Shown: in pieces, positions 16,737 to 17,552 of the stretch
Layout of the letters: each line of letters starts with the position of its first letter
Position numbering within the stretch: position 1 is the stretch's first letter
Position numbers and translations under genes: made by a program
DNA from: Escherichia coli
GTDB taxonomy: Bacteria > Pseudomonadota > Gammaproteobacteria > Enterobacterales > Enterobacteriaceae
Assembly: GCF_003334385.1 (NCBI RefSeq)
Contig: NZ_QOWN01000003.1
Length of the DNA: 64,000 nt
Strand: one strand, 5' to 3'
Notes under the pieces: model-generated
The model's input: the letters and a program-made list of their open reading frames with translations, nothing else
What the model was told of the DNA's origin: nothing
Databases searched by the model: none

Positions 16737-17552
16737 TTAGCGAAGTGTTTTTGGGGTCATTACCCGACGAGCGCCAACATAGTGGCGCTGCCAGTAGTCT
16801 TCACTGAGAGAAGTGATTTGAATTTCCTGACCTGTGCGCGGTGACTGAATAAATTTGCCGTTGCCGACATACACGCCGACATGATCGGCTGTGCCGCGTC
16901 CCTGAGTACGGAAAAAGACCAGGTCGCCGTTTTTCAGTTCACTACGTTCGATTGGCGCTGCATCACGCAGGTGATACATTTCATTCGCCGTACGCGGAAT
17001 ACGAATTTTCACCAAATCTTTATAAGCGTAATAAACCAGGCCGCTGCAATCAAAACCGGTACGCGGTGAGCTGCCACCCCAACGATATGGCTTACCAATT
17101 TGCTGCATCAGTTTATTCATTGCCACCTTCGTAGCTTTTTGCACCTTCGCTTTGTGCGCGTCGGCAAGAGTTCCTGACGCGGCATTTTTGACTTTCACAC
17201 AATGCGATTTATAGCCCTTACGTTTGGTACACTTTTCGGTAAAGCTGGCTGAGGCCGTTTTATTGACGGCGTGTTTGCTGCGAGTTTTGGCGTTTTTAGA
17301 AGCGGTAATGGAAGATTTTTTAACGGAAGAAGCGGTTTTGCTTTTGGTCGTACTTTTACTGGCGGCTTTTTTCGCTGTTTTCTGGGTCTTTTTGGTGGTT
17401 GCCGTGCTTTTCTTTTTATCTGCTTTTTTGGTGATATGAGTGGTAGCAGAACTCTCCCTGGCTTGCTTTGAAGCATGGGCCATAGGCGTTAAAGGCAGGG
17501 TGGTAAAAAGTAAAGCACAGAGCGTGATCGAAATACGGTTTATCCGCGCCAC
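16737..17552 (-). CDS. mepH: NlpC/P60-family peptidoglycan DD-endopeptidase MepH (YdhO)
   Basis: 271 aa, GTG start; signal peptide, Lys/Thr/Ser-rich low-complexity linker, C-terminal NlpC/P60 domain (GFDCSGLV). Confidence 0.9.
   Translation of the reverse strand: MARINRISITLCALLFTTLPLTPMAHASKQARESSATTHITKKADKKKSTATTKKTQKTAKKAASKSTTKSKTASSVKKSSITASKNAKTRSKHAVNKTASASFTEKCTKRKGYKSHCVKVKNAASGTLADAHKAKVQKATKVAMNKLMQQIGKPYRWGGSSPRTGFDCSGLVYYAYKDLVKIRIPRTANEMYHLRDAAPIERSELKNGDLVFFRTQGRGTADHVGVYVGNGKFIQSPRTGQEIQITSLSEDYWQRHYVGARRVMTPKTLR

Follow-up and report, generated by a model that had tools for sequence, protein, structure and literature searches.

A polycationic, predicted disordered N-terminal tail and a conserved Cys-x9-Cys hairpin in the Escherichia coli endopeptidase MepH

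The stretch of Escherichia coli DNA analyzed here (64,000 nucleotides of contig NZ_QOWN01000003.1, hereafter the window) contains the mepH (ydhO) gene on the minus strand at 16737..17552, a coding sequence (CDS) that starts with GTG and encodes 271 amino acids followed by a stop codon, as identified from the open reading frame (ORF) listing, RefSeq identity and synteny. It is the only long ORF across positions 17150-17475, the interval addressed in this work, and its translation holds the peptide KKADKKKSTATTKKTQKTAKKAASKSTTKSKTASS quoted in the first-pass annotation, in which the interval had been described, from the DNA sequence alone, as a low-complexity linker of an NlpC/P60 endopeptidase. 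The 816 bp CDS is 100% identical to that of the RefSeq "peptidoglycan DD-endopeptidase MepH" (WP_000101193.1), a mepH match is present in 5426/5426 complete E. coli genomes (with nearly full coverage in 5424), and the gene order is lhr-grxD-mepH-sodB-ydhP-cydH-purR, both grxD and sodB being seen inside the window. Taken together, these observations show that the window is part of the E. coli chromosome and that the gene is mepH, as previously proposed; both sequence identity and conserved genomic position place it in the MepH/YdhO orthologous group, and the NlpC/P60 domain was recovered by Pfam (PF00877, E=2.3e-36, residues 153-263). MepH is a DD-endopeptidase that acts on 4-3 cross-links (PMC11211486, PMC11789061). 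The interval is, almost certainly, the N-terminal part of this soluble periplasmic enzyme and comprises a disordered polycationic tail (residues 28-103) followed by a Cys-x9-Cys hairpin. MepH is a known, well-annotated gene and the tail is an ordinary, composition-constrained, routine low-complexity region; the additions made here are small, namely, the exact boundaries of the tail, the Cys-x9-Cys hairpin, the constancy of charge density among orthologs and a correction of the strand of one overlapping ORF.

The interval corresponds to MepH residues 26-135, which consist of 24.5% K, 17% A, 15.5% S and 15.5% T. Collectively, K/T/S/A account for 73% of these residues compared to 23% in the catalytic domain, in agreement with the earlier description of a basic segment rich in these amino acids that separates the signal peptide from the catalytic domain. 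Residues 28-152 include 31 K and 3 R versus 2 D and 2 E, and a sliding window located a 65-residue core (residues 41-105) with 85% K/T/S/A and 29% K. Among the 71 stop-free frames of at least 150 amino acids in the window, the next highest K/T/S/A content is 55% and the median is 35%; against the window background, the K/T/S/A content has a binomial probability of 7e-23, and that of K by itself, 3e-12. Thus, the compositional bias is real and far beyond chance. Tandem Repeats Finder detected no tandem repeat in 16700-17600 at a score of at least 30, so the possibility that the region is a repeat array was dropped; the tail DNA contains only short direct repeats, among them CCAGAAA and ACCGCTTCT. 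The interval splits into three parts: the low-complexity tail (residues 28-103), the hairpin (residues 104-122) and a helix, alpha-1, that starts at residue 129. The low-complexity stretch, originally estimated at about 100 residues, is therefore confined to residues 28-103 (about 76 residues), whereas residues 104-135 are conserved and predicted to be ordered.

The signal peptide (residues 1-27, MARINRISITLCALLFTTLPLTPMAHA; 17472..17552, minus strand) consists of a basic n-region, MARINR, followed by a hydrophobic core, and ends with MAHA|S, an apparent A-H-A|S signal-peptidase I site at which cleavage is expected. It is 27 amino acids long in all full-length orthologs, A27 is conserved in at least 90% of them and S28 in all. 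No lipobox ([LVI][ASTVI][GAS]C) was found at the end of the signal peptide, which argues against a lipoprotein; the sole cysteine of the signal peptide, C12, lies inside the hydrophobic core (ITLC) and has Leu at position -1. Given the conserved A-x-A|S site and the lack of a lipobox, mature MepH is expected to be soluble, with Ser28 at its N-terminus, so that the K/T/S/A-rich segment would be a free N-terminal tail after cleavage and not the linker it was taken for in the first-pass annotation. Park et al. modeled MepH as periplasmic and found that fusing it to an anchor in either membrane, inner or outer, abolished complementation of a mepS mutant (PMC7516022). Over the first 13 mature residues (residues 28-40; 17433-17471, minus strand), the net charge is just 0 to +2 in each of the 64 aligned orthologs (the query and 63 others), and the lysine-rich tract, with about +0.3 net charge per residue, begins only after them. 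Sec export is intolerant of positive charge immediately downstream of the signal peptide. The low charge at the beginning of the mature protein fits this constraint.

The tail (17244..17471, minus strand) was delineated by composition, predicted local distance difference test (pLDDT) scores and ortholog comparison. It has a net charge per residue of +0.26 (+20 in total), contains only 5% hydrophobic residues, and lacks Pro and Gly. In the AlphaFold2 (AF2) model built from a diverse alignment of 100 sequences (mean pLDDT 79.1), residues 28-103 show pLDDT values of 49-56 and no secondary structure assigned by DSSP, compared to 93-98 for the catalytic domain; this model replaced an earlier run with 64 close orthologs that was poor throughout (mean pLDDT 48.8). 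The charge-hydropathy margin of the tail is +0.41, on the disordered side of the boundary, and is positive in all 64 orthologs. Searches of Pfam, NCBIfam and the PDB identified no relative covering the tail, and autocorrelation of its basic residues revealed no helical or strand periodicity. Residues 28-103 thus combine biased composition, lack of predicted structure, and divergence with insertions and deletions but retained composition, the hallmarks of a disordered low-complexity region; no experimental data on disorder (nuclear magnetic resonance, circular dichroism or protease sensitivity) for this tail were found in the literature searched. The disorder originally proposed for the entire segment is accordingly predicted for residues 28-103 but not for residues 104-135, where a hairpin and a helix are modeled with pLDDT of 74-95.

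The ortholog set included proteins from Escherichia, Shigella, Citrobacter, Salmonella, Kosakonia, Yokenella, Enterobacter, Scandinavium, Franconibacter, Trabulsiella, Leclercia, Pseudescherichia and others (at least 13 named genera, according to the source names). Comparison of these sequences revealed four zones. The signal peptide (residues 1-27) is always 27 amino acids long and well conserved, including the A-x-A|S end. The tail (measured as residues 28-104) varies between 64 and 96 amino acids (median 81) with a mean pairwise identity of 36%, the middle segment (residues 105-152) between 43 and 49 amino acids with 67% identity, and the catalytic part (residues 153-271) is always 119 amino acids long and 91% identical. 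The suggestion that the length of the segment varies among MepH orthologs was thus borne out, with no strict conservation of length or sequence. The only conserved motifs in the tail are KKK and the few residues at the mature N-terminus. Its net charge per residue, in contrast, falls between 0.20 and 0.28 in every one of the 64 orthologs, and the pooled tails consist of 22% K, 19% T, 18% S, 13% A and 5.5% R (about 28% K+R). Hence, the composition and charge of the tail are conserved without sequence conservation.

Similar tails extend beyond the close orthologs. When 1.84 billion representatives were searched exhaustively with phmmer, 144 proteins were recovered at E<=1e-30, of which the single-domain relatives were examined. 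Almost all of the relatives nearest to MepH (about 45-68% identity) possess basic N-terminal tails of unrelated sequence, with net charge per residue of 0.13-0.32 and N-terminal regions of roughly 120 to 200 residues; by source name, the distant members include proteins from Dickeya zeae, Affinibrenneria salicis and Rouxiella. The presence of basic tails across these distant relatives implies that the soluble NlpC/P60 enzymes of this clade have maintained a basic disordered tail. One relative (P0222, 265 amino acids) contains a true tandem repeat tail of AAKKP/AAKKS units, resembling histone H1, upstream of the NlpC/P60 domain. Another protein (P0121, 1183 amino acids) includes nine matched NlpC/P60 stretches in a single chain.

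Downstream of the tail, conservation and two AF2 runs delineate a conserved beta-hairpin (residues 104-122, FTEKCTKRKGYKSHCVKVK; 17187..17243, minus strand) with the pattern FTEKCTxRKGxKxxCVKV. Among the 64 orthologs, C108 (17229-17231) and C118 (17199-17201) are invariant, and K107, T109, R111, K112, G113 and K115 are each at least 90% conserved. Strands 104-109 and 117-122 were predicted in both independent AF2 runs, with pLDDT of 74-83 in the better one. In an antiparallel hairpin made of these strands, residue 108 pairs with residue 118, so that the invariant cysteines face each other and probably form a disulfide in the periplasm; the hairpin would thus probably be a mini-domain, stapled by a disulfide, that lies between the tail and the catalytic domain. 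Cysteines at the equivalent position, spaced as Cys-x(10-11)-Cys, were found only in the nearest of the distant relatives, P0122, P0126 and possibly P0140. No study of the MepH tail or of the Cys pair was found in the literature searched, the coverage of which was incomplete, so this does not prove that they have not been studied.

The remainder of the protein is the NlpC/P60 module (residues 129-271; 16740..17168, minus strand), which consists of helix alpha-1 (residues 129-149) and the Pfam domain. PF00877 (MEROPS C40) is matched over the full model (positions 1-105), and Pfam showed nothing significant N-terminal of residue 153. The catalytic pair, C169 of the DCSG motif and H224, is invariant in 100 homologs, and residues 129-271 are modeled with pLDDT of 93-98. 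The Foldseek search initiated with the MepH model retrieved MepS, Acd24020 and LytE with E ~1e-11 and target-normalized TM-scores of 0.8-0.9. Sequence and fold matches in the PDB begin at about residue 122-150, the lone exception being a low-complexity alignment to the linker region of LytE. In NCBIfam, no hidden Markov model (HMM) reached its cutoff for MepH, the best being the MepS equivalog (86 bits, versus the 186 required), and the N-terminal 100 residues scanned by themselves gave no match; presumably, the RefSeq name comes from a rule of another kind.

On the sense strand, A makes up 42% and T 14% of the tail DNA, with Lys codons AAA and AAG in a 17:3 ratio, and six slippage-prone A5-A6 runs are found in codons 42-86 (17293..17429, minus strand), at 17424-17429, 17413-17417, 17389-17393, 17367-17372, 17316-17321 and 17293-17297. 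These runs, together with short direct repeats, probably promote slippage that yields in-frame length variants and occasional frameshifts. Two E. coli alleles, of 816 bp and 828 bp, are common and differ by QKAS after T56; the site of this 12-bp indel (17379..17387, minus strand), identified from protein and DNA alignments, separates the 271- and 275-amino-acid proteins and, in the longer allele, is flanked by duplicated CCAGAAA. In an evenly spaced sample of 30 genome matches, on which these proportions rest, the 816-bp allele was present in 20/30 genomes and the 828-bp allele in 9/30. Rare protein variants in public assemblies have lost 9-61 residues, nearly all within the tail. The large deletions are singletons; several deletions are bordered by 5-9 nt of microhomology, which occurred in 0.6-4% of trials with random in-frame deletions, and others are not. 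Most of the rare deletions were observed once, and some could be assembly errors. The propensity of the segment for length variation that had been suggested is evident within E. coli, in the 271/275-amino-acid alleles and the rare deletions, as well as in the 64-96-residue range among orthologs. Two E. coli variants (P0045, 210 amino acids, and P0047, 214 amino acids), each seen once, carry the same 61-residue deletion (AASKS...CVKVKN) with GCCGC flanks on the 271- and 275-amino-acid backgrounds, respectively; part of the tail and the entire Cys hairpin are missing in both.

Frameshifts were encountered in the A-runs as well. Insertion of one A into the A6 run at 17316-17321 yields an A7 allele in which mepH is frameshifted, in three Logan accessions (L004-L006; ERR13763722, ERR13669413 and ERR13763582). 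This allele (P0030) has 101 member sequences in 36 contigs from short-read assemblies and encodes a truncated MepH; on it, the gene caller predicted a 246-amino-acid product that starts in the +1 frame and lacks the signal peptide. A probe for the A7 frameshift found the allele in 0/5425 complete RefSeq genomes, so A7 was dropped as a common or phase-variable state, and the allele belongs to a rare clone or a single study. A compensated double frameshift was found in one assembly (L007; GCA_900448615.1, UGAW01000002.1), where an A6-to-A5 change followed by an A4-to-A5 change causes about 40 tail residues to be read in the +1 frame. The adjacent lhr and grxD genes are fragmented in this assembly too, so the double frameshift was rejected as biology and is most likely a homopolymer sequencing error.

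Several known systems resemble parts of this architecture. MepS (Spr) shares with MepH the catalytic fold (Foldseek E ~1e-11, 30-34% identity to 8xud, 7v6t and 2k1g), cleavage of cross-links, control by Prc/NlpI and a disordered segment N-terminal to helix alpha-1, although the resemblance of the tails is only positional. MepS is an outer-membrane lipoprotein whereas MepH has no lipobox; the disordered region of MepS is 37 residues long, is not basic, and its hydrophobic residues fold onto NlpI (PMC11211486), in contrast to the tail of MepH, with about 76 residues, a charge of +20 and almost no hydrophobic residues, followed by the Cys-x9-Cys hairpin. No homology was detected between the N-terminal regions of MepS and MepH, the matches starting at MepH residue 101-148, with the MepS N-terminus and the hairpin not aligned directly. 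LytE and CwlO of Bacillus subtilis and p60/Iap of Listeria, like MepH, contain an NlpC/P60 domain after Ser/Thr/Lys-rich low-complexity sequence; the phmmer alignment with LytE (residues 108-310) spans MepH residues 51-263, and the NCBIfam p60 model matched MepH residues 22-264, far below the cutoff. In these proteins, the low-complexity sequences are linkers between folded wall-binding modules (LysM, SH3 or coiled coil). Unlike these, MepH contains no wall-binding module detectable with Pfam, which leaves the tail as the only candidate targeting element. Phage endolysins active on Gram-negative bacteria and engineered "Artilysins" combine a peptidoglycan hydrolase with a Lys/Arg-rich segment, unstructured or amphipathic, that binds anionic envelope components. 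These segments are about 9-30 residues long, usually C-terminal, and act on lipopolysaccharide or membranes from outside, whereas the tail of MepH is N-terminal, long and non-amphipathic and resides within the bacterium's own periplasm. The KKAA(P) tails of histone H1-like proteins and AlgP are close to the MepH tail in K/A/S/T/P composition and charge density, but are cytoplasmic and bind DNA, in contrast to E. coli MepH, which is exported and lacks a tandem repeat.

Considering that the orthologous tails share their charge density, exclude residues that are acidic or hydrophobic, and keep to a minimum length, electrostatic interaction with a polyanion appears to be the most economical function of the tail. 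Tentatively, we infer that the tail is a non-specific electrostatic tether of soluble MepH to the anionic sacculus or envelope, a possibility that we rate somewhat below even. The involvement of the segment in envelope interactions, raised in the first-pass annotation, is plausible. Peptidoglycan stem peptides bear free carboxylates, so that the sacculus is polyanionic. Under this scenario, selection would maintain the charge density of the tail, its paucity of residues that are hydrophobic or acidic, and a length above some minimum, but not its sequence. The +20 tail would bind the polyanionic peptidoglycan, MepH's own substrate, with anionic phospholipid head groups as the second candidate partner, and might hold a freely diffusing hydrolase on its substrate, increasing the local concentration or dwell time; the disulfide-stapled hairpin could act as the coupling element between the tail and the catalytic domain. 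Of the three "space-maker" endopeptidases that are redundantly essential in E. coli, MepH is the sole soluble one, MepS being an outer-membrane lipoprotein and MepM an inner-membrane protein. Several points weigh against a tethering role. No experiment on the MepH tail was found in the searchable literature, and binding to peptidoglycan is pure inference; low AF2 confidence is a mere proxy for disorder; and a polycationic tail could serve other partners equally well. Furthermore, the common 12-bp polymorphism indicates that the exact length of the tail is not critical, and the rare E. coli alleles lacking 9-61 tail residues imply that part of it is dispensable for viability, although this is weak evidence because MepH itself is non-essential.

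The principal alternative is that the tail is a proteolysis handle, recognized or engaged by the adaptor NlpI, the protease Prc or both, by analogy with the disordered N-terminus of MepS. NlpI assists Prc in the degradation of MepH in vivo (PMC8996183) and also in vitro, where BipP modulates the process (PMC11789061); in the case of MepS, binding to NlpI and efficient degradation depend on the disordered N-terminal 37 residues (PMC11211486), and the N-terminus of MepH is likewise predicted by AF2 to be disordered. The contacts appear to differ, however: MepS engages NlpI via hydrophobic residues L24, F31, L34, V35 and V38 that extend helix alpha-1, but the MepH tail, +20 and 5% hydrophobic, is devoid of conserved motifs other than KKK and the residues at the mature N-terminus, and its K/T/S tract (residues 28-103) contains no hydrophobic cluster of the MepS NlpI-docking type. 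A MepS-like contact with NlpI is more likely to reside in the conserved residues 104-152 than in the K/T/S tract and, in addition, a significant share of MepH proteolysis is independent of NlpI (PMC11789061). We therefore consider a role of the tail as a degradation handle to be rather unlikely. A similarly low likelihood was assigned to the possibility that the tail is a largely neutral low-complexity expansion, produced and maintained by replication slippage in A-rich DNA and tolerated on account of being soluble and harmless, perhaps with a spacing role only. The low sequence identity (36%) and frequent indels, the homopolymer-rich DNA, the common 4-amino-acid polymorphism and the rare large deletions in E. 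coli, some with microhomology of 5-9 nt, and the lack of an obvious phenotype in mepH single mutants (PMC11789061) are all compatible with neutrality. Drift, however, would not hold the tail within a narrow charge band of 0.20-0.28, with acidic and hydrophobic residues nearly excluded, at 36% identity; moreover, the tail is retained in every full-length ortholog examined and in distant Enterobacterales, and the large deletions are singletons.

Two further scenarios appear less plausible. An uncleaved signal peptide could anchor MepH in the inner membrane, in which case the segment would be a genuine flexible linker allowing the catalytic domain to reach the peptidoglycan layer. With a contour length of about 27 nm and a coil radius of gyration of about 2.6 nm, 76 residues would be enough to span the distance from the membrane to the sacculus, and disordered reach-linkers are present in LpoA and LpoB. 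Given that the A-x-A|S motif and the fixed 27-amino-acid length of the signal peptide are conserved, that its hydrophobic core is short (about 15 residues) and includes Pro and Thr, and that MepH tethered to the inner or outer membrane lost complementation (PMC7516022), such an anchor is very improbable, the least favored of the explanations considered. It also seems improbable that, owing to the tail, MepH is controlled by ionic strength or charge, bound to the sacculus only as long as the attraction is unscreened and losing function at high salt, even when this option is taken jointly with its extreme variant, covalent attachment of MepH to peptidoglycan by L,D-transpeptidases via the lysines of the tail, as in the case of Lpp. 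If true, charge gating could explain the failure of MepH to back up MepM under salt stress (PMC7516022). The proposed functions of the tail are not mutually exclusive. The separation of the basic tail from the Cys-stapled hairpin provides two clean mutation targets for the study of substrate finding and of recognition by Prc/NlpI.

Three shorter ORFs overlap the tail. The 93-amino-acid ORF at 17195..17476 is K/R/P-rich and lies on the mepH strand (minus) in the +1 frame; rather than a gene, it is a reading frame translated only in frameshifted mepH alleles (P0013, P0022, P0030, P0042 and P0049). Two ORFs on the plus strand, 17224-17439 (71 amino acids) and 17271-17471 (66 amino acids), are antisense to mepH and encode hydrophobic or Gly/Phe/Arg-rich mirrors of the Lys/Thr/Ser/Ala codons. 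When the codons of residues 26-135 were shuffled 500 times, the observed open length was reached in 64% of the shuffles for the +1 sense frame, and in 16% and 34% for the antisense frames, so that the overlapping ORFs follow from codon content alone. Of the two ORFs (17195-17476 and 17224-17439) previously regarded as spurious antisense ones, both are indeed spurious, but only 17224-17439 is antisense, 17195-17476 being on the sense strand in the +1 frame. For annotation, the overlapping ORFs are artifacts, and the A-runs of the tail are a source of both real and spurious frameshifts.

An Rfam scan of 16500-18300 on both strands detected no RNA family. Within the 333-bp intergenic region between mepH and grxD, there is a 50-amino-acid ORF at 17652-17804 on the plus strand. 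The genome survey also yielded one plasmid-borne copy of mepH, and one genome (NZ_CP128950.1; E. coli TUM2805, 4.09 Mb) in which mepH is reduced to its first 116 bp (the 5' end) beside grxD, with the rest of the gene deleted.

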